45,478 bases of DNA. Source: Jimgerdemannia flammicorona. Lineage: Eukaryota. Each line of letters opens with the position of its first letter. Position 1 is the stretch's first letter. Both the position numbers and the translations under genes were made by a program. Below the pieces are notes generated by a model. It had not been told where the DNA came from. It ran no database searches and saw nothing but the letters and a program-made list of their open reading frames with translations. Positions 1-45,433 of the stretch are shown piece after piece. The stretch lies in the NCBI GenBank assembly GCA_003990765.1, contig RBNJ01000060.1, positions 1 through 45,478 of the forward strand, given 5' to 3'.

Positions 1-113
1 TTTTTTTTTTTTTTTTTAGTAGAATAATTTTTTATGATTTCTTTTTATTTTTATAAAATTTTAGATACAGTTGTTTTTTGCAGCTGAATTTGGCTGAAAT
101 ACTATCTAAGAGA

Positions 114-568
114 AGTATGTTAGAGTCTCAGACTTCAGAGATCTCTCAGCCCACTGTATCAATGCACTAGAAGCCAGAGTGGCTACAGAAGTCCAGTCTA
201 CTATTACCCTCAATAATGATGAAGTAGAAGACTTCTGACATCTCATCCTTCAGGACAACTCAGACCAATTTCTACAAGAATTGATCTCAGTATTCCAAGG
301 CCCAAGTATCCAGGTTAGATCTCTCCAAAACCCCACATTTGTTTCCTATTTTATGAAAGAGAACCTCATAGACTGAAGAGTACTAGACCTTCTTATTCCC
401 ACCACCACTGAATATGATGACATTATCAGCGATGACATCATCTTATGTGATATACATGAAACATATAACCTACATAATGACAATAAATTTGCAGACCTCA
501 TCTCCTTTGAAGACATCCTGACCTCTGATGAGGATGAAGCCCCTATGGTCTTGAACATTCTGCTCTAA
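114..568 (+). pseudogene. C-terminal part of the family-A LTR-encoded accessory ORF
   Basis: Reads YVRVSDFRDLS...DLISFEDILTSDEDEAPMVLNILL*, matching the ORF ends at 11727 and 18913. Contains in-frame TGA stops. Confidence 0.75.
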
Positions 569-3241: not shown

Positions 3242-3370
3242 TTTTTTTTTTTTTTTTTTTTTTTTTATAGTCACTTAGACTTCTCTTTATTACTGCCTTC
3301 TATAATAATAATGATACAATATCACCCCATCCCTTCAACCAATACTCCTTGGCTCCACTCCTCTCTCCTC

Positions 3371-6300
3371 TATACCCCTCTATTGGAGGACAACTCAGTC
3401 ACCCACTATCTAAATCCTCCCACCACTTTTCTGAGAGATATACTGTACCAACCCTCTGTGACTCCCCCCATCTGGCCCCCACCCTCGCCACCAGCCATTC
3501 AAAATATCCAGTAATAACCATTCCCAATGTGCCACCCTATCCTCAACCCCAACCTGCTGGCCCTTCTCAAATACATGTATCCAATGCCCAGCCATCCCCA
3601 TCCATATGGCCAGAGTCCAACCAAGGGTCAGCTATTTATCTTCTACCCCTCCAACCAGCCTTCAGCAGAGCTCTCCCCATCTCCCCCCTTCCCCTCTCTC
3701 TAGGGCTTACAGCCCTAGATGGTCTGTGATATACCACCAAAACACCCCTAAGATATCACACTTGCTAAGCCAATGTTCAAGCATTTATATCACTTCTCCT
3801 TCCTGTCTAACATCGAAGCACTCCTCACACTCAAACATGCCACTGGCTACCAAGTGCCCAGACCGATAGTTCAATATCACATTCTGCTGTAGAACTCACC
3901 ACCATACCACCCAGAACTTGAGAAGCAACTACTGTATCACTCACTTGCTTCAAAGCCAGAGACCATTTCAGTTCCACTCCTTACCAATATCAACCCTCTG
4001 CCAGGCTTTAGGCCAAAGATCTCCACCCAAACCCTACAAACACTCTATACCATTACCAAGCTGGAAGTCCTCCACCAAAGCACTGCCCAGCAATAGCCTG
4101 TCTCATCACCACATCTGCAGTCCCCAAACCTCCTCTCCTTCATCACCCCTCTACTGAAGACTAATTCTCCTAGCCCCATCCACCACTCTCCACCAAAAGC
4201 CCATATACTACATCCTTCTGTTTCCATCTATGGCCACCATCGCAAGCAGGTCACCAGAGGCTCCACAAGGGGAATACTGGGTCTCCCACACTCTCTGCAT
4301 GAGTGGCATCCACTCTCAGCCCCTCAGCTTGCTTGCCCTTCTCAGCCACCAGGCTCTCAAGCAGTGAAGCCATTTAGTAAAGTCCACTAGCCCCAGCCCA
4401 CCTCTTTCCACTAATAGGGTAAGAACCTCCCAGCCTATCTGACTCCACCACCCTCCCCAGATCCACGATCTCACTATCTTCAACAGCCCCTTGACCACCC
4501 AAGCTGGGAAGTTCAGATGATATCCCACATACCACAGCTTCAGTATCCAATATACATTCAGCACTATCACCCTTCCTGCCAAGGATATATACTGACCACT
4601 CCAATGCAGAAGCACATTTCCCCACTCTAGAAGTCATTGGTCCCACCATGCATAGGGGAGAAGTGACCCAAATACCAAGAAGTAGATCTCCAAGTAATGC
4701 ACTGGCTCTCCTGTCAGCACCACTGTCCCAATCACATTACCACTAATGATTCCACTACCTAGTACCAGAGTCTCACATGTGTCCCAATTGAGTTTAGTAT
4801 CAGATCCCCTCTCATACTATTCAACTGACCTTTGTAGCTCCCCCACATCTGCCAATGAGCCCAGTCTAACCACCATATCATCTGCAAAGGCCCCCACCTT
4901 CCAATTTATTCCTAGAATATCCAAACCCCCAATTTGATGCTAGATTCTGTCCAGTAGGGGCTCCAGGGAGAGGGTATATAAGATGGGTGACAGAGGGTCC
5001 CCTTGTGGCACCCTACAACCAAGAGGAAAGACTACCCCCCTATGGCTATTAACTACTAAGGCTGCCTGACTGTTTTCCAAAAGACCAATCAATGACCTGC
5101 AGAACCCTGGGGGAACACTAATCCATTTCAACACTCTCTCTAACCAGATCCTCCTCACTCTATCATATTCCTTCTCCTGATCCAAAAAGACCAATTGGCC
5201 ATCTACCCCTATAGTCCAGGTTCTTTCAATCACACCATATACCCAAGTCATCCCATTACAGATCAACTGACCACTGACAAATCCTTGTTGCTCCACACCA
5301 AGCACTTGCTGAGTGATTTCCTACAGCCTCAACACCAATATCTTGGTTACCAGCTTGTGGTCCATGTCGAGCAGCATGATAGGCTACCAGTTCTTTCAAT
5401 CTTCCCATCTTCTCTTATTCTTATAGAGCAAGGAGACCAGCCCTAGGTGCTGGCCCCCAATCCAAGTTCCAGACCAAAGAACCTCACCACACATATCTGT
5501 CATTTCCACCAGTACCTTGCCCACCCCAGCCATCTTCTTCCAAAAGTCCCAGGGAAGTTCATCCTCCTCTGGAGCTATCCCCTTACTCATTGTAGCCAAA
5601 ATCTTGCAAATTTCCTCTCCACTCATCAGGTCCCCCAAAGACCCCAGGCCCATAGCTGGGTCTGGATACCAATCTTCCAGCTGCCTCTCAATGGTCAAAG
5701 CATCCTCCCCCCCTTCCTTCTCACTCTACAGATTCTCCCAACAGGTCCTCAGCAATCCCAGAATTGCCAGAGTCCCCACCACTATCTCTCCATCCACACC
5801 CAGTATGCTATCCCACTACTGCTTCATTTGTCACACTTGTAACATCTGTAATAAAAACCTAGTAGGCCTCTCTCCCTCCTCAAGCCCCTGCTATCACAGC
5901 TGTGCCACCATCCCCTTCAGCCTAACCTCCTCCTCTCTTTGTAATACTTCCTTAAGCTCCATAACTTCCTTCTAGATTCTCACAATACACCAGTCAGTCA
6001 CCTCCTAATCCTCTAGCACCCCTGCCCATCTCCCTATGAGTATCACCAATCACCACAAGGCCCATAGTACTCTCTGTCATTATTGGGCACATCTCTCTTT
6101 CTCTACTTCCCTCTAGTACTCCTAAGCACTCACCTTCAGCCTTCTCCAGCAGTCTCCAATTACCAAGTCCTGGTCCCACCACCTCTCAATATTCCCAATA
6201 ACCCCCTTTTCCTAGTCTGCCCACAAAACCTCATCCTCCAATAAAGAAGAATTGAGTCACCAATGTCCAGGCCCATCCCCACTTCCCCCAAACCTCCTCC

Positions 6301-6997
6301 CTCCCAATAGACCCCAGTGATCTGACCATGGACACCAAACTACCTCCAGCATTGTCCAGACATCTACTCTTCAGCAATCCACCATCAATATCCAGTCAAT
6401 TCTTGAGCCCAGCCCTGCTGCCTAGTGAGTATAAATGTGATGATTATTCCAAAACCATCTCCCTGAATCAATCAAAGAACTCAACCTCTCCACCTCCAAT
6501 CAGTTTTCCAACCCACCACTTCTGCTCCTCATTCCTCTCCCTCCATCTATCCTGTTCTTCTCCTTATTCTGTACCATATTGAAGTCACCCCCCAGGCAGT
6601 CTAACCCAACCTTGCCCAAGACACTGGCCTCTTTCAAACTACAAATCCAATCCACCCATTCCCCTCTCTCTGCCAGGCAGTAATATGACCCCACTGTCAA
6701 TGGGCTCCATCTAGGCCTCTTCCACACTCCACACACCAACTGAGACCCCCAATGTCCAATGTTCCCAATGTCTCCCATCCCTTTTCAAACAAGGATACCC
6801 ACCCTCCCCATCCATACCACAGCCCTCCCCCAATCTCTAGTCCAATCCTATAAGTCCACATCTATCTCATAATGAATATCCTGCAGCAAGAAGAGATCTG
6901 CATCCAGTCCCTTTAGTCATCCAAATATGTACCTCCTCCTAGCCACCCTCTGTAACCCATTTATATTCAAAGAGAATATTCTAGTTGTACTGTTCAT
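3371..6997 (-). pseudogene. LINE ORF2 (APE endonuclease, reverse transcriptase, Zn knuckle)
   Basis: Starts MNSTTRIFSLNINGL...DLFLLQDIH. Later motifs: GGDFN, QQGFV, LDQEKEYDRV, VPQGDPLSPILY, FADD, GGLGL, CEEC...EHWLSKC. Many stops and frameshifts. The 3' end is approximate. Confidence 0.92.
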
Positions 6998-7028
6998 ATT
7001 GAAAAATGTTTGAATTTGAGATCCCAGC

Positions 7029-8871
7029 CTAGTATTCCATGCTCATCTTATCCCCAGCCAGATCCAAGCACCACTCAGCTTCCAAGTCACCCTCCACAAC
7101 AGTCTGAGCATCCAATGCCTCTAAGATTTCCTGATATTCCACCCCATCCACCACCTCTATCTCTGACCAGTAGTCAGTGCAGACTGCCCTGCACTTCTCC
7201 AATCCCTTTCTCGAGCCCCACAAGTATGCTGCCCAGTCATTCACAATTTCCCGAAGTTTCTCCTCCCTCTGATCCTTGATATTCAATGGACTCCAAAAGA
7301 ACTGCCAGGATCTCATTCCTCACCTTCCTCAGTACCTCCTCACCCTGAAGGATTTTCTTCCAATATCTCTCTTCTATCACCCAGAAGTCCTCTCCCCCTA
7401 GCTCCTCTGCTGCCACCCCTTCCAGAGTCTTCTACAGCCACTTCTCCTCATCCACTGCCTCTGCCACACCTTGGGCAACCTGACCCCCACTCACCTCTGG
7501 GTCCACCAAAGTGCTCCTCCTCACTGACTCATCCCACTCCTTATCTGGTATATCCAGCAACTCCTCCTCCCCCCCTGCCCCACCCAGGACACTATACTGA
7601 GGGTGCATCCCTTCGTTCATTTCTGTATCTGTCTCCACACCACCCACCTTCTCCTCTCTCAATCTATCCTATGCCCCACCTTGGGTCACCCCACTTCCCC
7701 CTGCCCAGGCACTCTCCCATGAACCTGCTTTCCCATCCTCTGTACTGCTGCCTGCCCCACTGCTACCCAGCTTCACCAGCAGCTCCTTCTGGATTTTCCT
7801 CTCCTGTATCTTCTCCCAGGTCACCCAATCCATCCTAACCCTCTTCCCATTGACCACTTCCACCACCATCCTGGCCTCATACTCCTTCCAAGCCAATCTT
7901 CTTCTCTTGACTGCTCCTTCTAGGTCCTCTAGAGCCTCGAGCAAGTCTTCCTCCTCTTCCAGAGTCCCCTTCACCCTCGTGACCTTGCACTCTATCTGTC
8001 TCCACTTCAGAGTTACCGGCCAGTCCCTCATCTTCCCTATGTTCTCCTTTCCAGCCAGCCTCACCTGGATGTCAACATCACTAGTTTGAAGCTCTATACC
8101 CTCCCAGACCTTGAACCTAACATCCGCAATCTCTCCATACTCCTTGACTACCTCTACAATCAACTCCCTAGCCCTCTCTCTCAATACTGTAGGAAGATCC
8201 AACACCATCAACTGCACTACTCGGGGGTCCCAGTGCATGTACCTGGCTATAGGGACCACAACCCCACCCACTATCACCCCCTTCTCCATAGCTGCCAGCA
8301 ATACTTCTTCTTCCTCAAACCCTACCTTGACCCCTTCTTTCCCCTTCAAAAACTTCACTGATACTGCCCTTTTTGCCTCCTATACCATCAGCCCTAAGAT
8401 CATCCTTACAGTCACCACCAAGTCTCTGAAACACATTGTGACAGTGAATTCAGACCTCAATTTCTTAAGTAATGATGCCAACACCATGCCCATCACTCTA
8501 TCTGCCAGGTCCCTGGGCCTCATGCCCACCCCCTGTCTTGAACCAGCAACTGCCATCATATCTAGATTTTTTGCCAGATCTCTAGTCACAGCCCCATCAA
8601 CAGTTACATCTCCAGCCCCTACTTCCCCCTCTCTCCTACCACTGGACACTCCCCTGGGTACTTCTCCCTGTCCCCCAGCAGCAGCCATCCATGTCTTCCC
8701 CAGACCCAGCCAACCATCCAGGCCAGAGGCCATTCTCCCCATCTTGACCATGTCAGCAAAGGTTGACCTCTCTCCTTCTCTCTGCCTCAGGCTATTCCTC
8801 CCTCTACCACCAGAGCCTTGGCTAGCCATCAAGGCCCCTGGTATCTCCAAACCATCTCTCCTCCTCCCCAC
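7029..8871 (-). pseudogene. LINE ORF1 (RRM-like nucleic-acid-binding protein)
   Basis: Fragmented ORFs 8380-8871, 7669-8358, 7432-7662 and 7029-7316 lie directly upstream of ORF2. The segment VVQLMVLDLP...LIVEVVKEYGEIADV has the RRM-like pattern of L1/Tx1 ORF1. Confidence 0.75.
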
Positions 8872-9043
8872 TTGCTGCCAGCCAAAGGCACCACTGCCCC
8901 TCTGGCCAGTATACTCATCAGATCGATCGTTGCCATCTATGTTGATAGTTGTCTACTATCAAAAACATTGTGAGAAGTGTTGTCTGAGTCTTGTATCACC
9001 TGAATGTTACCAGTGAAAGGTCCTGAGTAAAAAAAAGATATCT

Positions 9044-10667: not shown

Positions 10668-12158
10668 TGTAATAGTGACTCCAGAATGATAACATCAGTA
10701 CAGGAGACAGTCTTTCCTTGCAAGCCACCAGATTGGAGCACAAGAAGATCATACAATATATGAGATGAGCAATGATGACCAACTGTGAGTTATTGTGACC
10801 CTAGTTGAGTATCTTGAGAAATATAAAAGAAGGATCAAGGAACTATAGTAGCAGCAATCAATAAGACCCACCAATCTCAAAATAGCTCAAAGACTTACTA
10901 CAAACAAAATGCCTACTGCTTACCAAACCTCAAGGTCAAGGAACCACCAAGGCATCTCAGTTGAAGAAAGGATGTTCAAAGACATCAGAAGAGCCATGAG
11001 GACCTGCTCAAGAAGGACTCCTAGTATCAATCTGGATACTGATGACTCTTATCATTATATTCTCTACTACTATGAAATAGAAATAAGGATTACCATTGCT
11101 ACTGAATATCTCCAAATATGACAGGAGTATGAAATAGAAAACCTCCTCTGCTGAGAGTTCCCACAGGCCAGCCCTCAGGAGCTACAAGATACCACTCCCA
11201 TGGATATATGAGAGACAAGGACAGCTAAGAAGATCCATCAGATCTTCAGACATACACCATGGTCAATTCTCACCTTAGAGTATGTTAGAGTCTCAGACTT
11301 CAGAGATCTGTCATCCTGCCATATCAATGTACTAGAAACCAGGGTAGCTATAGAAGCCCAGTCCACTATCACTCTCAATAGTGATGAAGTAGAAGACTTC
11401 TGGCATCTCATTCTCCAGGACAACCCAGATCAATTCCTGCAAGAATTGATCTCAGTATTTCAAGGCCCAAGCATCCAGATTAGGCCTCCCCAAGACTCCA
11501 TATTTGTTCCCTATTTTGTAGAAGAGAACCTCATAGATTGGAGAGCCCTCAATTTTGCTGCTACTGAATATGATGATGTCATTGATAATGACATCATCCC
11601 ATGCAACATCAAAGCATGCAAAATGTATGATCTATGTGATAATGATGAATTCATGGATCTCATCTCCTTTGAAGACATCCTGACCTCTGATGATAAAGCC
11701 CCTATGGTCATGAACATTCTACTTTAAGTCTCTTTATATAATACTGAATAATGCTAGCACTGGTATTTTGATGTAATACTGAATTATACCAGTATCCTGA
11801 ATCTGTACAACCATCAGTGCTGACCCTGGAACTTAGCAGTTTTCCTGTCCTGGTATTTTATTTTAATTATTGAAATTTATATTTAGCTTTATATCTTAGC
11901 AATTATTGAATTATATTTTGTATAAATACTCCTCTTATTTCCTCTAAAATAAAGTCAGTTCTGGTTCACTTATACATAATCTCTTACAGGCAATCTAAGA
12001 GATAACAAGACAGTTTAAAGATAAGAAGTTTGAGGACTATAAGATCTTGGGAAGGTACTCTAATAAGAACTTGCTCATAATAAACTTGAGTTAGTCTAAG
12101 AGATATATATTGAAGAGAATCTGATATATTTGAAGGACTCAGCAACTACTACATAACA
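10668..12158 (+). repeat. 5' LTR of element A
   Basis: TGTAAT...AACA, a direct repeat of 17854-19347. TATA-like tataaata at 11921 and AATAAA at 11948. Confidence 0.95.
10672..11727 (+). pseudogene. LTR(U3)-encoded accessory ORF, 5' LTR copy
   Basis: One uninterrupted frame containing the ORF-track pieces 10909-11121 and 11446-11727. Internal stops are TGA/TAA/TAG, nearly all at positions explicable from CGA/CAA/CAG/TGG. Confidence 0.7.
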
Positions 12159-12213: not shown

Positions 12214-15200
12214 ATGAACAACCCCCACAATAACTACCCTGACTACAAGAGTCACTCCTGTAAGAATTCAAGATAAGATGGAAATGTATCCCCCCACATT
12301 CTATAGATATACTACTGAAGAGTCAATCCTGACCTTCATTAAAGACTTTGAACAATTTGCCACTGTATGAGCCCTTGGTGTGGATGCACAATTGGCCCTT
12401 CTACTAGTCAGCCTCAAAGGACCTGCCAGAGATAAGTTCAATACAACCACTATTACCAATAATGGTATAGCCAAACTTGCCAATATGAAGGCCTTTCTCA
12501 GAACAACATACTATACTGAAGAGATCAAGTAAGCTCTCAAGGATTAACTCAATACTATCTGCTAGGGACTTAGTGAAGATTCCAACTCATTCTATACCCA
12601 AATCTACCACTAGATTGTCTTGACTGGCTATGATGATGCCCTCAAGGAACAAATAGTAGATTCAACCTTTCTCAAAGGAGTTCACCTAAAATTGCCTTAG
12701 CAATCTGGTCTACCCCAGCTGCACTGACCCTTGATCAGAAAGTGGTCTTTGTACAGAGATATTGGACTGTCAGACACCCTGTCAAACATTCAATAGAGAA
12801 AATAACTGGTATCAAGATAGAGCCATCAAAGCCAATCAGTATCATATCTACTATAGTTGTAAATAGACAACTAACTCCACCTACCCCCAAGGCAGCCAAA
12901 GTTGACCCAGTGGAGAAACTTGCCAAGTAGTTTGCCAAAATGACTGCACATCTTGGTGATGTTGTTAGAGAAGTCTGAAGTGCCAACAGGAGACCAGTGC
13001 AGAGATTTGCAGCTACTATAGAAGAATGCAATATCACATGCTTCAGATGTAGAGAAGAAGGCCACTATTCAAAGAATTGTATAACTGAAACAAGATGCAA
13101 AGCCCAACTAAGCAATGCTAGCAGAACCAGAGAACAAACTAATACAGTAGTTATCGAGGAGATTGGTGATACTGATGATGAAGATTACTATGAGAAGCTT
13201 GAATTCTACCATACTACTGAAGGTACCAGAATCCAGTCTAAGCCCTATGATAAGAAGAGCAACAGCAAGCCAGTTGAAAGATCAAAGAAGACCTCAGCTG
13301 TCACTATTCAAAGCAAGACTCAATCTAAGAAGATTGATTAAGACATAAAGTTAGATGAAACTGCCCACCAAATCATTGAAGACACTACTCCAGTCTCAGG
13401 AGAAAGTGAAAGCAAGAAAGAACAGAAGCTATGTAAGACCAAGATCCATCAGTATGATATCTATAAGGATCTCAAGGAACAGAAGGTCAATGCTACTTTT
13501 GGACAGCTAGCTGAAGTCTCTGCCTTCAGATAGCAGTTGAGAGTAGAACTTGCAACTACTGTCAAGAATCAAGAGTATAAGATTGTAGAAGCTCACAATG
13601 TACAGAAAGAATCCAAAAACTCAGATGAAGAATCTGAAGATCAGCACAAGACATCAGCCTATACTCTATGTCAGATTGAAGACTATATCTTTGATACTAT
13701 CATTGATACTGGTGCTGGAGAATGTCTTATGAGTAAGAAGGCAATTGATTGCCTAGGTTGGGACATTGAAGAGTCTACCAAGATGGTCTATGTTACAGCA
13801 GATGATATATAAGCTACCCCCCTTAGCAAGATCCAAGAAGTCCCCATCAAGATAGGAGAAGCTACTATTCTAGTGGACGTAATTGTTACAAGTATCACCA
13901 ACTATAACATTCTCATTGGCAACCAATGGCTTTATAAGGCCAAGGCCATCATTGACCTCAATGCCCAGAAGATGCAGATCAACTATAGAGGAAGAAAGAT
14001 ATGAGTCTCTATCAATATCTATAATGGAGTTCTACCAGACATGGAGGAAGAAGATGAAGAGGACACAGAGGTCTTCATGTACTTGGTGAATAAGAACAAG
14101 AACAAGACACCTAAGCTCACAGATGAGCAGTGGTATAACAAGATTATTGATGGCTATGCCCCTCAAGAAAGATACTCTCATAGTACTAGAATGTATTGCT
14201 CTAAACACCTGAATGACTACTGGTCCTATATCAGTGAAGTCAGAAAAATCTGCCAATAGAAATATGAGCAAGAAGCTGCTGAAGCAAAAAGGAAAGCTAA
14301 AGAAAATGACCAGCTCCCTGAGCTTTAGGCTGACAGTGATGATAAGGAGAAACAAGAATCAGACATCACCCTCAAGGTCAAGAAGTTTCACCCCAAAGCC
14401 AAGATCCCAGAATATAAGACTGAAGGAGCCAGAGAAATGGACCTTGCCATTATTCAAGATGCTATCCTCAAACCACAGACCACCACCCTACTTGATACTG
14501 AAATTGGAGTCAAGTTGCCAGAAAACCATACTGGAATTATCAAGACCAAGAGCAGTCTGGCCAAAAGTGAAATCTCAGTTGAAGGAGGAGTAATTGACTC
14601 TGATTACACTGGTGAGATCTTCCTTATAGTCAGGAATCACAACCCCACCACCCCATTTGAAGTCAAGAAGCATGATAGGATTGGCCAGATACTGATCCAT
14701 GAAATCAAGAAACCTAAGATCACTGAAGCCACAAAACTCATCAAGACCAAGAGAGGAGAACAAGGCTTTGGATCTACTGGAAGAGGAGCCTATGCCACCA
14801 CCAAGATTACCAAACTTGAACATAAGAGAGACAAGAACCAGAACAAGTACACATATACTATTGGAGAAAACTTTCCCCTGAAAGAACAACTTCTCAAGAT
14901 CCTATACTAGAATAAAGGAGTACTTACCACAGACTTCAGAGATATCCACAATCAAGAACCCAAGTACTACCACAAAGTTGACACTGGTGATACCAAGCCC
15001 ATCTACCAGAAAGCCAGACCCATACCACCTGTCTACAGAGAATAGCTGTGAGCAGAACTCAAGAAAATAGAAGAAGCCAGAATAAGCTATCAGTCCCTGG
15101 GCTTCACTCATTGTCCTTGCCCTGAAGAAAGGAAGCAAGCCTGGAGAGTTTGTACCAAGACTCTGTATTGACTACAGAAAGCTCAATACCATTACCAAGA

Positions 15201-17490
15201 AAGATAGGCAGCTCTTGCCAAATATTCAAAAAATCCTTACCACCCTTAGAAGCAAAGCCAAATACTACACCACCCTAGATCTGTTCTCAGGCTTCCATCA
15301 GATTGGTCTCACTCAAGATGTCAGTGAGAAATCAGCCTTCATCATACCTAACACCACCTATGTATATCTATCTGTGAATGCTATTTGGAATGTGCAATAC
15401 CCTAGTAAGTTTTCAGCAAATGATGAACAGAGCCTTCAGCAATGAGATTGGAAAATAGCTCTTTGTCTATATTGATGATGTGATCATCTTCAGCAATACT
15501 GCATAGGAATATGTCAATTACATACAGCTAGCCCTCAAGAAGCTCAAGGAGCATGGCCTTTACATCAAGCCTAAGAAATACAAGTTTGCAGCTTAAGAGA
15601 TCGCCTATCTAGGAAATCTCATCAACCAGACCAGAATCCATATAGACCCTATGAAGATTGAGACTATTGCAGCCTACCCAAGACCCAGAACAACTACAGA
15701 AGTCCATGTCTTCCTTGGACTGACCAACTACTACAGAAGATTCATCAAAGGATACTCCAATATTGCAGCACCACCTATCTATGAGCTATTAAAGAAGGAG
15801 ACCAAATTTGAATAGACCAAGGAATACTAAGAACCCTTCAATGAACTCAAGACTAGGTTAACCCAAGCACCTATCCTCAGAAGACCAGATTGGAACCTAG
15901 AATTCATCCTGCAGACAGATACATATACTATAGGACTTGAAGCATCCTAGCTCAGAAGAAAGATGGACATGAATATATCATCTCCTATATATACTGAGGT
16001 ACCTGTGGAGCAGAACAGAACTACAAGTCATACAAGCTCAAATGCTTAGCAGTAGTTTGGGCAGTAGACAAGTTCCACTACTATCTAGCTGAAAAATACT
16101 TCACTATTCAAACAGACCATTCCACTCTTGTCTGGCTATTCCACACTCTGAACCCCAAAGGAATATATGCCAGATAGATCTACAGGCTGTAAGAGTATGA
16201 CTGTACTGTTAAGCACCACTCAGAAAGAACCAATATCAATGCTGATGTACTCTTAAGGACACCCCAAAACACTCCCATCAAGACTATTCAATATGAATAA
16301 GGAGCTATACTATGGATTAATCAGCTATCTTGAGTAGCAGAAGATGCCCAACTATCTCGAACCCTGAACAATCACCATCATCAACCAGACTTGGAAACAG
16401 TTTGAACTAGACAACACTATACTCAGAAAAGAAGGAAAGCTAGTAATACTAGAATACAAGAAGTATTCAGTAATGAAGGAAGTATATGAGTAAGGATATC
16501 TAGAAGAAACCAATACATATGACAAGGCAAGAAGAACCATATGGTGGCCTAAGATAGAAGAAGACCTTTGCCAATTTGTCAAAGAGTGTGACAAGTACCA
16601 AAAACAGAAACAATATCAGCAAGACCAGGCACCTGGGTTATCAAGAATCAAGCCTATCCTCTTCTACCACATCACAATCAATATCATTGGGCCACTACTA
16701 GTAATATTATCAGGAAACTGCTATATTATAGTTATTGTAGACCTCTTTACCAAATGGATAGAAACAGGAGCATTACAAGAAGCCAATGTCCTCTCTATAG
16801 CTAACTTTCTATATCAAGAAATCATCTGCTGCTATAAGACACCAAAGCAAATCACAACAGACTGTGGTATAGAATTTGTCAATAGATTCCATGAGATAAT
16901 GTATTAGAAATACAAGATCCAGTATATCAAGACCACCACATACCACCCTCAAGGAAATGGACAGATAGAGAGAACCAATAAGACTCTCAAGAACATTCTA
17001 GTGAAGATCTCAGAGACATATGAGAATTGGGATAACTATCTCTCAACTGTCCTCTCTGTCCTATGAGATATATTATCACAGAGCACACACTTTACCCCAA
17101 GAGAACTGCTCTTTGGAGAAGAAGATTCTGATGGAACCTCAGCCACAAATCTAGACCTAACTTGGAGATGGGTTGATGCAGAAATCCCAAGACTACACCA
17201 AATCAGGAAGAAGGCTGAAGATAACATTATCAAGTTACAAGTACTGATAAGAAAGAATGCAGAAAAGAATCACAAGACCCTAGAACCCATCTGAATTGGA
17301 GAAAAGATCCTACTGTATCAAAATATGGTAGAAGCCTCATAGTCATAAAAACTGGAGCCCAAATGGGAAGGACTCTTCTATGTGCAAGATATCAAGAGAA
17401 CTATCTTCTAGCTTAGAAAAATCTCAGAGACCATACTGCCTACTACAGTACATAGGAACAGACTCAAGAAGTACCATGAACCTATATAAG
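12214..17490 (+). pseudogene. gag-pol of element A
   Basis: Zn knuckle CFRCREEGHYSKNC; protease IIDTGAG; RT RLCIDYRKLN, LDLFSGFHQI, YIDD; RNase H FILQTD, TDHS; integrase DIIGPL, TDCGIEF, YHPQGNGQIERTN, KWEG. Many premature stops. Confidence 0.95.
14380..14781 (+). pseudogene. dUTPase domain within pol of element A
   Basis: All five dUTPase motifs are recognisable: MDL, KSSLA, GGVIDSDYTGE, RIGQ, RGEQGFGSTG. Confidence 0.93.
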
Positions 17491-17843
17491 AGAAGCAAAA
17501 TGTGATGGTCACCCATGAGATTCTAGTCTGTAAATTGTAACAGTATGTCCCATGATCAGCAGACTATCTGTCTGGACCATTCTCTAAGAGATATGGTACC
17601 AGCAACTACTTATCCATGAGACTTTTGAAGCCAGAGGAGTTCGAACTATCAACTGATTGGTTAAGATCAGAATTAGGCCCTTGCTCTATATGAAGAGAGT
17701 GATCCTTCACCATCATGTCAAAATTCAAAGAGAAGATGTCAGCCCATAAACACTACTTTTCAACCCCTTGCCAGAGGTTATAGGATCAGCAAATTTTTCA
17801 GGACTGGATGAATGAATAAGGATGCTCGAGAAGATCCTTATTT

Positions 17844-17853
17844 AGGAAGAAGA
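17844..17853 (+). promoter_or_regulatory. Polypurine tract of element A
   Basis: aggaagaaga lies immediately before the TG of the 3' LTR. Confidence 0.85.
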
Positions 17854-19347
17854 TGTAATGGTAACCCCAGAATGATGACATCAGCACAGGAGACAGTCTT
17901 TTCTTACAAACCACCAGATCAGAGCATAAGAAGATCATATGGCATATGAGATGAGTAATGATGACCAACTGTGAGTCATTGTGACCCTAGTTAAGTATTT
18001 TGAGGAATATAAAAAAAGGATCAAGGAACTGCAGTAGTAGTAATCAATAAGACCCACTAATCCCAAAATAGCTCAAAGACTTACCATAAACAAAATGCCT
18101 GCTACTCATCAAACCTCAAGGTCAAGGAACTATCAAGGCATCTTAGTTGAAGAAAGGATGTTCCAAGACATCAGAAGAGCCATGAGGACCCACTCAAGAA
18201 GGACTCCTAGTGTCAACCTGAGTACTGGTGACCCTTATCATTATATCCTCTACCACTGTAAAATGGAAACAAGGATCACCATTACTACCAAATGCCTCCA
18301 AATGTGGTAGAAATATGAAATAGGAAACCTCCTCTACTGGGAGTTCCCACAGGCCAGCCCTCAGGAGCTATAAGATGCCACTTCCATAGATATATGTGAG
18401 GTAAGGACAGCTAAGAAGATCCATCAGATCTTCAGACATACACTATAGTCAATCCCCAACTTAGAGTATGTTAGAGTCCCAGACTTCAGAGATCTGTCAT
18501 CTTGCCATATCAATGCACTAGAAACCAGGGTGGCTACAGAAGCCCAGTCCACTATTATCCTCAATAGTGATAAAGTAGAAGACTTCTGGCACCCCATTCT
18601 CCAGGACAACCTAGATCAATTCCTGCAAGGATTGATCTCAGTATTTCAAGGCCCAAGCATCCAGATTAGGCCTTCCCAAGACCCCACATTTGTCCCCTAT
18701 TTTGTGGAAGAGAACCTCATAGATTGGAGAGATCCCAATTTTATTACTGTCAAATGTGATAATGTCATTAGTGATGATATCATCCCATGTGACATTGAAG
18801 TACATGAAACATACAACCTATATGATAACAATGAATTTGCAGACCTCATCTCCTTCAAAGATATCCTGATCTCTGATGATGAAGCCCCTATGGTCTTGAA
18901 CATTCTGCTCTAAGTCTCTTAATATAACACTGAAAAATGCCAGCACTGGCATTTTGATGTAATACTGAATTATACCAGCATTCTGAACCTATACAATCAT
19001 CAGTGCTGACCCTAAAACTTAGCAGTTTTCCTGTCCTGGCATTTTATTTTAGTTATTGGAATTATATTTAGCTTTATATCTTAGCAATTATTGAATTATA
19101 TTTTGTATAAATACTTCTCTTATTTTCTCTGAAATAAAGTCAGTTCCAGTTTACTTATATGTACATAATCTCTTACAAGCAATCTAAGAGATAATAAGAC
19201 AGTTTAAAGATAAGAAGTTTGAGGACTATAAGACCTTGGGAAGGTACTCCAATAAGAACTTGCTTATAATAAACTTGAGTTAGTCTAAGAGATATACCTT
19301 GAAGAGAATCTGGCATATTTGAAGGACTCGGCAACCACTATGTGACA
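17854..19347 (+). repeat. 3' LTR of element A
   Basis: TGTAAT...TGACA, a direct repeat of 10668-12158. Confidence 0.95.
17858..18913 (+). pseudogene. LTR(U3)-encoded accessory ORF, 3' LTR copy (up to 351 codons)
   Basis: ATG at 17858 is in frame with ORF pieces 18095-18310 and 18530-18913. Same length and frame as the 5' LTR copy. Confidence 0.72.
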
Positions 19348-21912: not shown

Positions 21913-22317
21913 TATAATATAGCAGATGCTTACTCTTGAAAGTATGTCAGATTTCTGTATCTTGAAAACTTGATCTTCTCTGACTCCTCAGAGTCCTTTG
22001 AGTTGTAGGGGAGGATGGGTGAGTTTGAAGTATATCTGCCTGCAGGCTTACTAGTTCCTTTGCTATCTCTTTGCTTTGAACTATTTTGATCTGAGGTTTA
22101 TTCACTTGAAGATACTGGGTTATTTATACAAGTTTGCTAGCTATGAGATGGTTACTGGGTTATATAGCTAAGTTATGAGTCATTTAACACTTTGCGAAAT
22201 ATTTAGCAAGTGGTGAAATTAAGGACTGCTAACTATGTGGCTATACTACTTTGGGACTGAGTGTGATCAAGTGTCTGTTCTCTATTTCCTTCTTCTGAAT
22301 CTGGCTATACCATCACA
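21913..22317 (-). repeat. 3' LTR of element B (405 bp)
   Basis: Direct repeat of 28015-28473, shorter by an internal indel. Confidence 0.95.
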
Positions 22318-22324
22318 ACTTCCT

Positions 22325-22770
22325 CCTAAATAGATGATCTCATCCTTGAAGCATCTATTCAAACTCCCAGGCTTCAATGGTCTGTATGGTCTTGTATTGT
22401 GTGATTTGTTACATTACTGTTTCCCAATGGTGTCACCTGACTTGGTCAAAGTCTGAGGGAGTCACTCCTCACAGGTGGGCTAGTGCTGGTTCATCCTCTT
22501 AGAATAGCTTATAGATTCTCTTAGCAATAGTGATCTGGGAATAGGAGAGCTGGCATTCTACGATCCAATTTTCTTTGGTCATTTCTGGGTCTTGGTTGAG
22601 TACTTGGCCAAGTTTGAAGTACTCTTGAAATTCATTTTGATACTGATAGGTCTTGAAGTATGAGATTCAAGAGAGATGAGTCTGTGCAATGCTTTGGATA
22701 CTATCATAAGACTCCTCTATGATTGGAGGCTTGGTGGTATACCATCGCAGTACTTTTGTTACTGGCCATG
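22325..22770 (-). pseudogene. Accessory ORF downstream of integrase in element B
   Basis: Single frame ...QEYFKLGQVLNQDPEMTKENWIVECQLSYSQITIAKRIYKLF*EDEPALAHL*GVTPSDFDQV..., similar to the A LTR ORF. Confidence 0.65.
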
Positions 22771-28014: not shown

Positions 28015-28473
28015 TGTAATGTAGCGGATGCTTACTCTTGAAAGTACGTCAGATTTCTGTATCTTGAAAACTTGATCTTCTCTGACTCCTCAGAGTCCTT
28101 TGAGTTGTAGGGGAGGATGGGTGAGTTTGAAGTATATCTGTCCACAGGCTTACTAGTTTCTTTGCTATCTCTTTGCTTTGAACTATTTCAATCTGAGGTT
28201 TATTCACTCGAAGATACTGGGTTATTTATATGTATAAGTTTGCTAGCTATGAGATGGTTACTGGATTACATGGCTAAGTTATGAGTCATTTAACACTTTG
28301 CAAAATATTTTGTCAGTTGTGAAATGCTATACTATATCGAGAAGCTCGATCTCGCACTTTGCGAAATATTTAGATCGAGGACTGCTAACTATGTGGCTAT
28401 ACTACTTTGGGACTGGGTGCAATCAAGTGTCTGTTCTCTATTTCCTTCTTCCAAATCTGGCTATACTGTCACA
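28015..28473 (-). repeat. 5' LTR of element B (459 bp)
   Basis: TG...CA termini. TATAAATA and AATAAA on the minus strand near 28230 and 28200. Confidence 0.95.
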
Positions 28474-28483
28474 CTATATATAA

Positions 28484-29778
28484 AGTAATATGTCTGACTC
28501 AATAGAGGCAAATTATAAGGTTGGGGATTGTACTAGTTTGGTTTGAGCCCTCAGTTACTTTGTTAAAAGTAACAAAATATTCTAAGATTCCTTGGGTCCT
28601 TATTGGTGTTTAGTGGTATAATAGTCAAAGCTAGATATCTATAAGTAGTTCTGATGATTTTCTTATTGGGACAGGTTTTTGGGTATAGTAGCAATTTGTA
28701 TATATAGCAGATAATATTTGTATAGTATGATGATCTCTGTATAGCATAGCAGGTTTCTTATACATGATAATCTGACAATTTGGCAGTTTTCTTATATGAT
28801 TTCTATATGACAATCTTGTATAGTACAACAATCTCCAAAAGTATGTAATTTCTGACAGATGACTTGATTTGGTATGGGTTTACTGAGAATAGAGAGTGGT
28901 GTGGATTCTTCCTGAATTGATGGCTCACTAGAAATGGATAAATAACTCAGATGATATGAATGGTTTGGGTAACTCAGATAACTTGAATATTACAGATTCT
29001 TCCTGAATCAGACTTACTGAGAATAACAACTTAGTAGTTCTCTGGTAAAAAATTCAGGTAGCATAGATTATTCTGAATTGGCTTATAGAGAATTGTACTG
29101 GTGGCAGATTCTTTCTAAATCAGCAGTTCTCTGGGAATATAGATAACTTAAAAGTGATAGACTTCTTAAATAACTTGGATTCTCTTCTCTTGACAAGTTA
29201 CATCAAGACTGGCTTCATTTGTATGAACAAGTTCACTGTAAAGTTGCATCAACAGACTGGCTTTATACAAAATAATAGACTTCTCTTAAAAACAGCAGCT
29301 TATTTCTTAAGTGGCAGATTACTCAAATAGTAGGAAAGTTCTTCTTTAAACTTTGGTAATAAATCTTCAGACTTATCTGATAAGCAAACCAAGGCTTTGT
29401 ATTGGAAAGTAGACTAGAGTAGAAAGGAGACCAATGATCAATATTTAGAGCCTTCTTTAGTATTTATATTTCAGACTGAGGTTTATTCACTCTTATCTCT
29501 GGAGTATTTTATACAGTTGGGATTACTACTGATTACTACATTGCAAACTATAGATTGCTAACTATAATAAGTATTCCTTGAGAGTACAGTGTACCTGGAG
29601 GGTACAGTATATCTTGAGAGTATAGTATACCTAGAGGGTATAGGTAAACATACTGTTTCTAGTATCTCTGGCTAAATATACAAGTTGGTATAGTAAAGCA
29701 GTCTTGATTGCTTAGTGCACTAGATATAGTATATGGCTAATTTATGATTTTAGTAATACAATTCTGTTGCTCATTACA
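28484..29778 (-). repeat. 3' LTR of element C
   Basis: Direct repeat of 37287-38537, ending ...cattaCA on the plus strand. Confidence 0.92.
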
Positions 29779-29805
29779 TTAGTCCCTACTAAAGGATGAT
29801 CTGTC

Positions 29806-30290
29806 CTCAGACAATCCTTCTGTCATCATTCCAATATACATAAGTATCTTCAGCATCAATATCTGAACTGGTATCCTCATTTAGATTAGAGTTACTCTAC
29901 TTAACAGGTTCTTTTTCTTTCTCTGGAAACAGGATTTTGACATGGTTGATGATGCTCCAGTAGGTGGCAGGATTTATATTTTGGATATCATTTAGGAGGA
30001 ATTATACTTGCATTAATACCAGGATATTTTATTTGTAAATTATATACAATCTGTCTGCAGCAGTAGTATTTTTCCAGGTGAGGCCAGTGGAGTTTCTGAT
30101 GTAGGTTAGGTCTACTGCTGGAAGGTTCTACAACTGTTCTTCAATTATATAGTAGGCCTATAGCTGGTAGACTTGTAGTAAATATCTAGCTAAGACTTGT
30201 TGGAATTATAGAAGAGAAACTGAGAGTAATTGGAATGAACTTAGAACAAAGGTCTGGAGGTACTGGTCAATTGTCTGGTTTATGATAAGA
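29806..30290 (-). pseudogene. Accessory ORF downstream of integrase in element C
   Basis: Single frame ...AYYIIEEQL*NLPAVDLTYIRNSTGLTWKNTTAADRLYIIYK*...INPATYWSII... followed by an acidic tail. Motif spacing matches the B and A accessory ORFs. Confidence 0.55.
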
Positions 30291-37286: not shown

Positions 37287-38537
37287 TATAATATACCTGG
37301 CTCAATGGAGACAAATTACAAGATTGGGGGTTGTGCTAGTTTGGCTTGAGCCCTCAGTTACTTTGTTAAAAGTAACAAAATATTCTAAGATTCCTTGGGT
37401 CCTTATTGGTGTTTAGTAGTATAATAGTCAAAGCTAGATATCTATGAGCAGTTCTGGCAATTTTCTTATTGAGACAGATTTTTGGATATAGTGGCAATTT
37501 GTATATATAGTAGATGATCTCTATATAGTATAATTATCTCTATATAATACAGTAGGTTTTTTATATATAATGATCTGGCAATTTGGTGGTTTCTTTATAC
37601 AATTTCTATATGACAATCTTATATAACATAATAATCTCCAAAAGTATGTAATTTCTAATAGATAACTTGATTTGGCACAAGTTCACTGGAAATAGAGAGT
37701 GGTATAGATTCCTTCTAAATTAGCAGCTCATTGGGAATGGGTGAATAACTCAGATGATATGAATGGTTTGGATAACTTGGATAACTCAGATATTATAAAT
37801 TCTTCTAGAATCAGGCTTACTGGGAATAATAACTTGGTGGTTCTCCAGCAGATAATTTAGGTGGTATAGATTATTCTGAATTAGCTTACTGGAAATTGTA
37901 CTGATGACAGATTCTTTCTGAATCAGTGGCTCTCTAGAAATACAAATAACTTGAAAGTGACAGACTTTTTAAATAACTCAGATTCTCTTCTCTTGGCAAA
38001 GTTACATTAAGCTGGCTTTGTTTGTATAAATAAGTTTACTGTGAAGTTATATCAATAGACTGGCTTTATGCAAGATGACAGACTTCTCTTAAAAACAGTG
38101 GCTTATTTCTTAAGTGACAGAATAGTAGCAAAGTTCTTCTTTGAACTTTGGCAGCAAATCTTCAGACTTATCTGATAAGTGAACTAAGGCTTTGTATTAG
38201 AAAGTAGACTGGAGTGAAAAGAGGACTAATACTCAATCTTTAAAGGCTTTTTTGATATTTATATTTTAGACTGAGGTTTATTCACTCTTATCTCTGAGAT
38301 ATTTTATATAGTTGGGATTACTACTGGTTACTATATTGCTAACTATAGAATGCTAACTATGGCAAGTATTTCTTAAGGGTATAGTGTATCTGGAGGATAT
38401 AGGTAAATATACTATTTCTAATATCTCTGGCTAAATATACAAGTTGGTGCAGTAAAGCAGTCTTGGTTACTTAGTGTACTAGATATAATATATGGCTAAT
38501 TTATGATTTTAGTAGTGCAATTCTGTTACTCATCATA
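37287..38537 (-). repeat. 5' LTR of element C
   Basis: Direct repeat of 28484-29778. Terminal TG/CA have decayed to TA/TA. PBS adjacent. Confidence 0.92.
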
Positions 38538-39127
38538 ATAGATATATTTAGTATACTATATTTGGCTATAGTCTTAATCTATATAAATATTCTCTATACT
38601 AAGTATAGTATAATCTCAACTTTACTTTTTTCTCTCAAGAATAAAGAAATATTCTTCTCAAAGAGTTCTTCAATCTGACTTGTTAATAATTCTGAGTCTA
38701 ATTAACTTAGAATATAAGTATAGTATCTCTATTCAGTTTAAGACTCTAAAAGTAATACTTAGACTATATTTTAGTAATAGAACTTAAAACTTTCTAAGAA
38801 CTTAGAATCTAGAGCTAATAGTCTATCTGGATTATCTGTAATATATATTAATCTTATTAGTATATAGTTTTATTATATTAATTTTTTATATAGATTTTTT
38901 TTTAAATAATTAATAAAAGTTAAGTAATAAATTTAATAAATATAGTTAATTTTAAATTTTATTTTTATTTTAATATTTTATATAATATTTTAATTTAGTT
39001 CAGTTAATTAGTTATTCTATTTTCTTAATTTTTTTTTTATTTTTTTTATAATATTCTGTATTTTATAAATAGTTAAAACTCTTTTCTTAGTATTAAGCTA
39101 TAGCTAAAATTAGTGCTCCGAATGAAT

Positions 39128-39280
39128 GGAGTTGATCCGGATGAGATTCGATTCAGATTCGTCATGTGATGGATTCGAATCAACTCGGATTGGTCTCGTG
39201 ATCTGATCCGGATTGATCCAGATTGATCCGGATTGATCCATCCGGATTGACCCATCCGGATTGATCCATTCAGATTGAAA
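39128..39280. repeat. Left subterminal repeat array of the hAT
   Basis: Many gatccggatt / gattcgaatc variants. Confidence 0.85.
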
Positions 39281-39479
39281 TCTTTGGTGATGTCACCCTT
39301 TCTTTTGTTCATTTCGCTCTTGTTTTTTTTTTCTGCTACACTTTGGTGACATCACCCTTTCCTTTGTTCCCTTCTTTTCTTTGTTCTTTTTCTTTGTTCT
39401 TTCCTGCCGCATCATAAGCAAACAAAACAGCAGCCCTAAATTCGTACGTTGGTCCAGTCTACTCATTTTTTACCCTGCA

Positions 39480-41539
39480 ATGATCGTCAAAAGAGGGAGT
39501 ATTCGAGGTGGAAATACACTCTCTGCTGACAATGTTAGATTCTTTCTCATATTGACAGCACACAAGCTGCTCATCGAGAGCCAAAGGGGTGATGGCAGTG
39601 GCAGTGGTGGTGGTGATGGCGATGGCGATGGCGGAGATGAGGGAGAATTCCAGCAACAACTCACAGCGGCCCTTCGGACCTCGGAATTCACAGACCTCAC
39701 AGCTATGTATGCGGCAGCCTTTTTGGAGCAGCCGATAGTAGATGTAGGTTGCTCACTCGGCCACTACTTGTTTACTTGTATTTATTTATTTAAACTTTCC
39801 CAGTATGACCCAATTTACCTCGTGCTTTTCTCAGGATCCACAGCTCTATGGTGAGATCTGCCGACTTTATTCGCAACATCTGGTCAAGATGAAGAAAGGC
39901 TGGCGGATGTTGCGGGGCATGCCTTTGGTGGCTGAGCTATTGAGTCAATGCATCGCATGGCGGAGGTCTTAAAAGGAACAGAAGTAAGCCTTCATGAGCA
40001 ATTCTTGTGCAACTCGTGCAACTCGTCGGCGTGCAACTCATCGGCATACAACTTGTCAGTATGTAGCTCACTCACTCGTGCTCTTTTTCTGAAATACCCA
40101 TCTCCGTGTTTTATTTAATTTCATTTTTACGTGGTCTCCCCCTAAAAAACACCCACACCCGACGCAACCTGCACACAACCCATCCACACACAACCCGCCC
40201 ACCCACATGCAGCCCGCCCGCACGCAACCCGCCCGCAACCCGCCCGCATACAACCTGCCTGCATGCAACCCATCCGCATACTTATCTCGGTCCCTCAGAT
40301 CAGGGTTCAGTTCTAGTGGAAAGGAGAGTTCAAAGTTACCCGAGTTCAACCACGTCCGGTGTCTGATCAAATAGAGAAATTCGAGGGCAAGATATTCAGC
40401 ATGAGTAGTACCAGCATCGTCATCAAGGCTTGGGGGTCTATATTCAAATCAGAGCCAATCGTACACAACCAAGGGGTCCATTGGCCAGCAGGAGTAACCA
40501 ACGACGAAGAGAACTATATCTTTATTAACGAATGTGGAGAGGTGGTTGCGATGGTGGTAAGGAACCTCTACGGCGACAAGCTTCACCGCCACATCAACGA
40601 GATTTGCGAGGATTGCATCAAATACTGGGTGGCAGGGAAGAGGGGGCGAAAAAAGCAAGGAGGGGGGGTTTGGATGAGAATTGGGTATACTGCAACACTG
40701 GCAAAGGGTGGGTTCCAAAATCCCCTGCACTCGTCTCCCTTTTTTTTTAACCCCTCCCCAGATAAATCACACTCTTCGCCAACATACTCTTTTTGATACA
40801 ATTCCAGAGATGCACAAGATTCTGTACCCCTACTGGAACTTTAGAAGTGCCGTCGAAGAGCAAACTATGCGCAAGCATGACACGGCCTGTGCGGCAATGG
40901 CGGCTATGATCTGGGGTTCTTTGAGCAGATTGGTAGAGCGTACGGCAGGCCAGCTTGGTGGTGATCTCAGCACGGCTGTACATATGTTCTTGGTGCAATT
41001 TAGCTTGCCGTATGAGGTGAGGAGCTCCGCTTTTTTGGGGTGCTGCAGCCTGGGGGTTTTCTGCGGCCCGGGGGGTTTCTGCCCCCCAAACGCAAAAAGG
41101 ACTGACCGGTTGCCATTCGTTTTGGCAGGTTTCCAAGCTGGGGCTCCCGGGGCTGGACCAAGGGCAGGCATCCACCAGCACAGCCTGGCAGTATGAGGTC
41201 CTGGGCCAAGGGTTCACCCAACCATATGCTCGCATCACATCAGGATATGTCAGGTGCAACCTTTCTCTGCCCACACACACAGACAACAACATCACCCCAG
41301 TAATGTTTTACATCCCGGAAAGGAAGGGCCCAACCTGGGAGGACAGCGGCAGAGTCTAGTACAACCTCACCTACGGTTTTGGGGTCCCATTTGTGGCCAA
41401 CATGGCTGTCCTATTCCAACCACACGACCACCACGGTACTGTTGCCTTCAAGGAGAGCTCGGATATAACAGTCGTCACACTCACAATGGATGACAGGCTC
41501 ATCAAGGCCTGGGACCGGCAGGTGGAGCAGTTTTTGTGA
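39480..41539 (+). pseudogene. Intron-containing cargo gene; C-terminal Fe(II) dioxygenase (DSBH) domain, TET/JBP-like
   Basis: GT-AG introns at 39744-39803, 39984-40298 (or 40316), 40708-40761 and 41017-41128 (branch site actgac at 41101). Last exon 41129-41539 reads ...GYVRCNLSLPTHTDNNITPVMFYIPERKGPTWEDSGRV*YNLTYGFGVPFVANMAVLFQPHDHHGTVAFKESSDITVVTLTMDDRLIKAW..., with HxD at 41276-41284 and distal HGT at 41432-41440. Stops at 39852, 39933 and 41357, plus one frameshift near 40650-40795. The first exon is uncertain. Confidence 0.6.
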
Positions 41540-41770
41540 GGGTTAGGCAATCTTTCGTAAGGGTTAGGCAGCCATTTTGTGTGGGTTGGGCAGTCTTATG
41601 TGGGGGGGTTGGGCCGGGTGCCTCTTATGTAGCACTAGCTTAGCCATTATGCAGGGCCCTACCGGCCCCTCGGCCCTGCTCTGTAGTGCTGCCAGTGCGG
41701 TGCTGCGGCACAGGGCCGGGGTGCCCATGGGACCCGAACCGGCGACTTCGACCGCTGGAAATGCCCTCTG

Positions 41771-41830
41771 ACCGCCAGAAGCACCCTCCGACCGCCAGAA
41801 GCACCCTCCAACCACCAGAAGCACCCTCCC
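41771..41830 (+). repeat. 3 x 20-bp tandem repeat
   Basis: accgccagaagcaccctccN repeated three times. Confidence 0.9.
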
Positions 41831-41882
41831 TCTGCCTGCCCCACCTGCCAACCGACCCCGCCCACTGACCCAGATGCTGACA

Positions 41883-42080
41883 GCTTGGGGCTGCCCCTTG
41901 CTGCTGGCGGAGGGCCGCAAATTTTGCGCACTCCCTCTGCCTCCCCCCCTGACCCGGACACTTGCGGCTTAGGGCTGCCCCTTACTGCCGGCAGAGGGCC
42001 GCAAATTTTGCGTGCTCCCTCCGCCAACCTGCCCACCGACCCGCCCACCGACTCAGGTACTGGCAGCTTGGGGCTGCCAA
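41883..42080 (+). repeat. Imperfect GC-rich direct repeats between the two convergent genes
   Basis: gcttggggctgccccttgctgctggcggagggccgcaaattttgcg at 41883 and 41967, with a partial third copy at 42067. Confidence 0.8.
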
Positions 42081-42201
42081 CCCCGCCCCACTTTGGCCGC
42101 AAACTCCGGGCTGAGTCCTCAGGTTTTTTTCCTTTTTATTAATTTGAAAGGTATTAAATATTCCACAAGGCCAACCAACTTATCCGCGGACCTGCCAAAT
42201 T

Positions 42202-44791: not shown

Positions 44792-44885
44792 GTGTGTTTG
44801 CATGTTTGCGTGTGCATATGTATGCGTGTGTGTGTATGCGTGTGTGTGTGTTGTGTTGTGGACGCATCCAGCATATGAGTCATGT

Positions 44886-45300
44886 GGAGGATTTGGATTG
44901 GAGGATTCGGTTGAAGGATTCAGATGAGGATTCGGATTGAAGGATTCGAATTGGAGGATTTGAATTGGAGGATTCGAATTGGAGGATTTGAATTGAGTGA
45001 TTCGGATTGAGTGATTCAGATTGAGTGATTCAGATTGAGTGATTCAGATTGAGTGGTTCAGATTGGAGTGGTTCGGATGGGTGATTCGGATGGGTGATTC
45101 GGATGGGGTGATTCAGATGGGGTGATTCGGATTGAGTGATTCGGACTGAGTGATTTAGATTGGAGTGGTTTGGATGGGTGATTCGGATGGGGTGATTTGG
45201 ATGGGGCGATTCGGATTAAATCCGAGTTGATCCAGATGGCTTCGGATTTGAGATTCGAATCAAACTGTCATGTGATGAATCAAATCCAGATTTGATTCAA
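44886..45300. repeat. Right subterminal repeat array of the hAT
   Basis: Long array of 14-15-bp units (gattcggattgagt, gattcggatgggt, ggaggattcgaatt). Confidence 0.9.
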
Positions 45301-45433
45301 ATTGACTTGTTCGGAGCACTAGCTAAAATACTTTTATATTTTTTTAATACTAAATATCTTATCTTAACTAGTTATAAAATCTATAAAATATTATAGAACT
45401 TACTTAATTATTTTTAGTTTAAACTTTATTTTA

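Follow-up and report, generated by a model that had tools for sequence, protein, structure and literature searches.

A gene formerly under purifying selection in the U3 region of a Ty3/Gypsy retrotransposon family of Jimgerdemannia flammicorona

Element A and the extent of its U3 reading frame

The window analysed here is the whole 45,478-nt stretch of contig RBNJ01000060.1 (assembly GCA_003990765.1) from Jimgerdemannia flammicorona. It contains a decayed retrotransposon, element A, whose TG...CA LTR pair, primer site, polypurine tract and PR-RT-IN gene order are those of a Ty3/Gypsy element (Table 1). The two LTRs are 88% identical to each other. Pfam matched zf-CCHC, dUTPase, RVT_1, Integrase_H2C2 and rve within gag-pol, the protease was located by tblastn in sister copies, and the dUTPase lies between PR and RT, as PMC2864245 also describes for some fungal elements. 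Decay of the elements is chiefly C>T/G>A (89% of differences), with CpG observed/expected ratios of 0.02-0.07 in retroelements A-C versus 0.61 in the right arm (39000-45000), and non-CpG cytosines are also affected.

Family A is abundant: a first look at the 231-Mb genome gave at least 5,085 candidates, and 150 of them were scored. Our LTR alignment comprises 64 near-full copies from 80 loci, four duplicates and 12 partial copies having been left out; 24 were retrieved with a protein query, 23 with a query of LTR DNA outside the ORF, and 17 were hand-picked, mostly for long open frames. By their flanks, 17 of the 64 are solo-like, the polypurine tract being absent before them and the primer site absent after them.

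Other repeats share the window. An approximately 470-bp element with 201-nt inverted arms splits the truncated family A LTR at 978-1447, and its end is similar to 45284-45328, beside a 14-nt tandem array (44938-45215). About 12 bp (28473-28486) separate element B, with LTRs at 28486-29782 and 37289-38541, from the 5' LTR of element C, and AT-rich DNA surrounds both. On the minus strand, 3300-9000 holds a decayed, strongly GC-skewed element, which we take to be non-LTR-like and in which 4940-5320 is RT-like, and remnants at 42700-44700 presumably resemble a hAT-type transposase; Pfam gave no match on 43722-44120.

Table 1. Features of the window that bear on the U3 open reading frame (ORF) and its relatives.
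Feature	Position	Strand	Remarks
ORF C-terminal part in truncated LTR of the same family	113..568	+	
5' LTR, element A	10668..12158	+	primer-binding site from 12162 comes next
U3 accessory ORF, 5' LTR copy	10909..11727	+	stops at 11119, 11152, 11209
gag-pol of element A, decayed	12979..17463	+	zinc knuckle, protease, dUTPase, RT, integrase
3' LTR, element A	17854..19347	+	polypurine tract 17844-17853 just before
Non-coding 5' part of U3, with fixed stops	17854..18094	+	motifs at 17876 and 17972
TATA box of the ORF	18008..18014	+	about 87 nt before ATG; 10822 in 5' LTR
U3 accessory ORF, 3' LTR copy, 272 codons	18095..18913	+	stops at 18308, 18371, 18446
Main LTR TATA (19106) and AATAAA (19133)	19106..19138	+	3' of U3 ORF and of a ~33-nt repeat tract
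Short homologue in element C, 153 aa, internal	22355..22769	-	overlaps integrase end, stops before polypurine tract
Probable decayed homologue in element B, weak	29830..30200	-	between integrase and polypurine tract

The first-pass annotation read the 3' LTR as holding an ORF of about 350 codons from an ATG at 17858 to a TAA at 18913. Both ends are present, but the length did not stand. The frame carries 10 internal stops, its 5' twin starts with ATA and carries eight, and upstream each of the 64 copies has stops at codons 6, 7 and 39, while 63 also have one at codon 60. An ATG at LTR base 5 occurs in 27 of these copies, and in only 13 is it in frame with the core; together with the fixed stops, this rules out a 350-codon gene. 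The shared upstream stops had been explained as former CGA or CAG codons, yet none of the 64 copies has a CGA, CAG or CAA allele there. The upstream stretch has a dN/dS of 0.72-1.21 across three frames, and none of its five shared indels is in frame. The region before ATG 18095 is a non-coding promoter region, and the coiled-coil-like N-terminus ascribed to the product is merely its translation. This region carries two motifs that we take to be CRE-like (at 17876, in 54/64 copies) and AP-1-like (at 17972, in 50/64).

The true start of the gene is the ATG at 18095, giving a length of about 272 codons. This codon is ATG in 47 copies and ATA in 17, and the terminal TAA is present in all 64. The N-terminus from this ATG can be aligned with families D and E and with proteins P0015 and P0017, and a metagenome locus, L236, has 46 nt around the ATG in common with family A (0/200 shuffles). 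Much of the earlier description survives this shortening: the 5' LTR preserves the same frame, the truncated LTR retains the C-terminal part, the core stops fall at different codons in the two LTRs, and the product has a very acidic tail. The tail (18760-18913 and its counterparts in other copies) varies in length through in-frame indels of 3-24 nt and carries most of the remaining CpG in less decayed copies. As had been proposed, the whole ORF falls within U3 and precedes the main TATA and AATAAA; it is therefore copied into both LTRs at every integration, U3 content being duplicated in this way during LTR replication. Of the suggestion that solo LTRs spread the gene, retention holds, the solo-like copies keeping it, but movement does not, since solo LTRs do not move copies.

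Evidence for selection on the coding sequence

Both full copies in the window are broken by stops, and the case for a gene comes from the 64-copy alignment. A majority stop occurs in none of 289 codon columns in the ORF frame, as compared to 11/288 and 27/288 in the two remaining plus-strand frames and to 10, 25 and 9 columns in the reverse frames; so open a core is far more than chance would give. Shared indels are multiples of three in 23/26 cases within the ORF versus 5/25 downstream. Pairwise dN/dS computed on transitions was 0.49 (0.38-0.62) for the ORF, 0.47 (0.33-0.66, 25 copies) for the element's integrase and about 1 (0.72-1.21) for non-coding LTR. Because decay here is mostly C>T/G>A, we ran the selection test again separately for each mutation class, with single natural copies as the reference. 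At A/T sites, synonymous change reached 0.112 versus 0.032 for non-synonymous change, and the 23 copies found through non-ORF DNA gave 0.112 versus 0.033 (p=9e-6, a generous value, as are all the selection p-values here, the LTR copies being related by descent).

We conclude with near certainty that the U3 of element A holds a real gene, formerly under purifying selection. A once-coding piece carried passively in the family A LTR would account for the fact that almost all copies are broken: of the 23 copies retrieved with non-ORF DNA, just one has an uninterrupted frame from start codon to stop, with many open copies elsewhere. However, selection on the ORF equals that on integrase, its shared indels keep the frame, and 152/159 premature stops fall at columns explicable by C>T/G>A decay after insertion. 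The passenger reading is thereby largely refuted and very improbable.

Sister families and a candidate promoter

The gene has homologues in six or more Gypsy families of this genome: within U3 in A, E and F, and in the interval between integrase and polypurine tract in C, D and, less surely, B. A joint profile, searched against 1.84 billion representatives, returned nine proteins, all without a name, which were then used to find more families. The family D protein is 41% identical to that of A, with no DNA match between the two; its ORF is internal, with the stop abutting the polypurine tract in 25/25 loci listed (21 distinct copies), a layout that the metagenome locus L236 repeats. The family E protein is 28% identical to that of A. 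At locus L242 the order is AT-rich flank, TG, ORF, tandem repeats, TATA, CA, primer site, gag, protease, dUTPase and RT, which therefore places the family E ORF within a 2,371-bp 5' LTR (this family being known from its 5' LTR only). The homologue in family F scores 31-34 bits, and its U3 placement comes from the flanks of three copies without gag-pol in view: a unit of about 2.07 kb has a purine tract before it (L235), a primer site after it (L217) and a near-perfect 5-bp duplication bounding it (L251).

In family C, the ORF runs in a separate frame from integrase and is the most constrained of all (dN/dS 0.23, 61 copies). Profile comparison supports its homology at 94% (E=1e-7), a figure that is partly circular because some members came from the joint profile; an earlier profile gave 65% (E=6e-5), and direct E-to-C protein matches reached E=7e-6 in a 20-sequence set. 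The decayed candidate in element B scores 4.7 bits versus at most 1.1 in a reversed control, and a less decayed copy, L238, scores 20.6 bits (E=1e-4). Two further decayed members, at L039 and L241 (33 and 57 bits), are both apparently internal, and the one at L241 resembles family D.

The internal regions of A and C share 66% DNA identity, and the two families have polypurine tract and LTR start in common (score 40, 0/200 shuffles). The ORF of A, in contrast, is closest to that of D, whose RT is only about 40% identical, so gene and backbone differ in history; this points to recombination of the cassette. A, D and two metagenome proteins meet at an open fork in the protein tree. An upstream shift of the LTR boundary over a formerly internal gene is the less favoured explanation, given that the gene lies on opposite sides of the polypurine tract and LTR start that A and C have in common; insertion or recombination fits better. 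We also considered a relic of the gene in the post-integrase spacer of A (17463-17850), but this stretch gave no profile match, has stops in all frames and shows a dN/dS of about 0.8-0.9. Separately, the main TATA regions of family E (at L242) and family C (22091-22144) share about 90% identity across 54 nt, with RTs about 47% alike, and promoter modules seem to have been swapped between families too.

A TATA box lies 55-110 nt before the ATG in 99/103 copies of A, 50/55 of C, 16/16 of D and 8/8 of F (shuffle-expected counts 7.2, 2.4, 0.4 and 0.9, respectively; copies of common descent, so these counts are not independent), as well as in L236; in family E, the strict pattern is found in 1/6 copies. 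The spacing is conserved in four of the five families tested. In family C, where the box lies at 22855, it is spelled by integrase codons in 53/56 copies, whereas the equivalent codons of A, which has no ORF there, spell it in 0/32. This conservation suggests that the ORF probably has its own promoter. The family A LTR reads, from its 5' end, enhancer-like motifs, TATA, ORF, repeats, main TATA and AATAAA, and with a conserved TATA before the ATG each LTR therefore has the appearance of a self-contained transcription unit. Among the sequencing runs listed, none is recorded as RNA; pieces spanning the ORF and the remaining LTR, mostly 85-95% alike and silent on strand, start and level, occur in two contig sets of guessed RNA status.

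The encoded protein and its possible role

The profile and structure searches recommended at the outset yielded no named relative. Three protein searches gave 5, 9 and 15 matches, all unnamed or "hypothetical"; Pfam placed none of 30 members in a family above its cut-off; PDB sequences gave no match at E<0.2; PHROGs held no named relative (best E 0.008, unnamed); and viral sources offered 0/22 candidates among contigs and E=0.2 among phage records. The product of the U3 ORF is, as judged from these sequence searches, a protein of no known family and undescribed.

The protein has nine K/R in its first 40 residues and 19 D/E in its last 60. A basic, arginine-rich N-terminus characterizes the long forms A, D and E, and the long forms have an acidic, hydrophobic tail; C and F have only four and one K/R in the first 40 residues, respectively, and family C is without the acidic tail (10 D/E and 8 K/R in the last 60). 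An env-like transmembrane segment or signal peptide was found in none of six proteins (highest 19-residue hydropathy 0.07-0.84). AlphaFold on 30 sequences gave a mean pLDDT of 76, with an all-helical core at 85-95 and a low-confidence second subdomain (model residues 140-197); a shallow alignment had given an unusable pLDDT of 35. The best structural match of the core was a VirB core-DNA complex (Z 4.2, rmsd 3.8, 77 aligned), below the tool's meaningful level, and SopB-DNA matched at Z 3.6 (rmsd 4.0, 79 aligned) in a comparison whose top two rows are not DNA-binding; these scores are tied with unrelated folds. Foldseek found no match at E<=0.001. Hints of a helix-turn-helix from the Pfam Mu I-gamma family (4/30 members, E=0.03), a DUF3102 model (probability 0.35) and Atlas are within chance range, the Atlas values being 0.77 for A and, scattered over unrelated families, 0.92-0.95 for C. 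The modelled core may weakly resemble ParB-type helix-turn-helix domains.

We propose that a dUTPase-bearing Ty3/Gypsy lineage carries a cassette of TATA box, 70-90 nt leader and ORF as a third gene, and that in A, E and F this cassette sits between the enhancer-like motifs and the main LTR promoter. Its own promoter would produce an unspliced mRNA with its 3' end at the LTR poly(A) signal, which would make every LTR, solo ones included, a complete unit. More speculatively, the protein might enter the nucleus via its basic N-terminus, its core might bind DNA through the helix-turn-helix-like fold, and its acidic, hydrophobic C-terminal tail might regulate the element's transcription, as in foamy-virus Tas. 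We give this explanation as a whole, a promoter and gene cassette encoding a Tas-like DNA-binding regulator, a probability of roughly 40%; that the protein is an element-encoded DNA-binding regulator is, by this analogy, a tentative assignment to which we would give somewhat less than even odds. A pure activator model leaves unexplained why the tail-less C form is under the strongest constraint, and this points to a separate role for the core. A bolder version, in which a retrotransposon lineage evolved a regulator in the style of complex retroviruses, a promoter and gene cassette for a protein of ParB-like helix-turn-helix and acidic tail that is swapped among Gypsy backbones about 40% alike, and thousands of LTRs, including solo LTRs, supply the regulator in trans, switching on or shielding whole families, seems doubtful.

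The same weak DNA-binding fold would be compatible with an anti-silencing factor that binds the DNA or chromatin of the element and keeps host methylation off it, as plant VANC proteins do in their role against silencing, and such a factor would suit elements so heavily decayed by C>T/G>A change, with CpG observed/expected as low as 0.02. At loci L081-L235, CpG is also two to three times higher in LTR than in the integrase of the same copies in C (0.39 versus 0.19) and D (0.54 versus 0.16), a comparison that has no starting-CpG baseline. Family A, however, has 0.05-0.06 in LTR parts versus 0.09 in integrase, with no retention outside the tail, and the protein has no similarity to a described anti-silencing protein; we consider this role unlikely. 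Less likely again is an accessory of integration or of the particle, an adaptor that would do the work of a chromodomain by tethering integrase or cDNA to AT-rich targets. The insertions are indeed flanked by AT-rich DNA, the ORF of C and B occupies the usual post-integrase place of a chromodomain, and Pfam found no chromodomain in the part of the element C integrase end that was scanned. Against this, the ORF is read in a different frame from integrase and has a TATA of its own, and its pairing with pol genes only about 40% alike is a poor fit for a protein partner; nor is it a chromodomain extension of integrase, the C ORF being in its own frame and the core all-helical. Lowest among these roles we place an RNA-binding export or packaging factor like retroviral Rev or Rem, for which the arginine-rich N-terminus of A, D and E speaks, as does the second exon of MMTV rem in U3 (PMC12789967). 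That basic N-terminus is absent in C and F, and no RNA-binding domain was matched.

The DNA-binding regulator that we favour would, if acting in trans, be to a retrotransposon what Tas or Tax is to a retrovirus and would offer a testable explanation for the bursts that inflated this genome. LTR finders and annotators assume that LTRs do not code and that solo LTRs are regulatory remnants, and a selected U3 gene in three high-copy families runs counter to that practice.

In its size the protein is similar to the foamy-virus activator Tas/Bel1, of about 300 aa. Tas/Bel1 is a DNA-binding activator of the nucleus that has an acidic domain at its C-terminus and is expressed from an internal promoter (PMC517496), and the putative second transcription unit and acidic C-terminus make it our working analogy; unlike it, our protein has no sequence or fold match, and its ORF lies in U3 in three families and internally in others. 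The resemblance of the core to the ParB-type proteins VirB and SopB (Z 3.6-4.2) may reflect a common helical arrangement, given 11-13% identity, an rmsd of about 4 A and the lack of an N-terminal CTPase domain. Additional ORFs of LTR retrotransposons (the env-like ORFs of Athila and Bagy2; the antisense ORFs of Grande, namely gene23, and of RIRE2, Retand and Boty) are internal, mostly from pol to the 3' LTR, in the review PMC7264820, which describes none in an LTR and reports Grande gene23 as a nuclear protein expressed from a promoter of its own. PMC5408684 describes rotifer ORF3s common to unrelated rotifer lineages. Like these, the gene is a family-wide extra ORF at the 3' end, but it is sense where the nuclear ones are antisense, is not env-like and belongs to another family.

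No retrotransposon with such a gene inside its LTR appeared among the search listings of openly available papers, and PMC3248453 had nothing relevant to one. A handful of complex retroviruses have a comparable layout, closest that of MMTV, in which the whole sag ORF lies in U3 and upstream U3 promoters are able to transcribe it (PMC12789967). Family A likewise has the entire ORF within the U3 of both LTRs, but sag encodes a retroviral type II membrane superantigen, whereas the carrier here is Ty3/Gypsy and the protein has no transmembrane segment and no sequence match to it. What appears to be new is the protein family, together with a variant of the layout known from MMTV, and sister families with the gene inside versus outside the LTR offer a natural comparison for the entry of retroviral accessory genes into U3.
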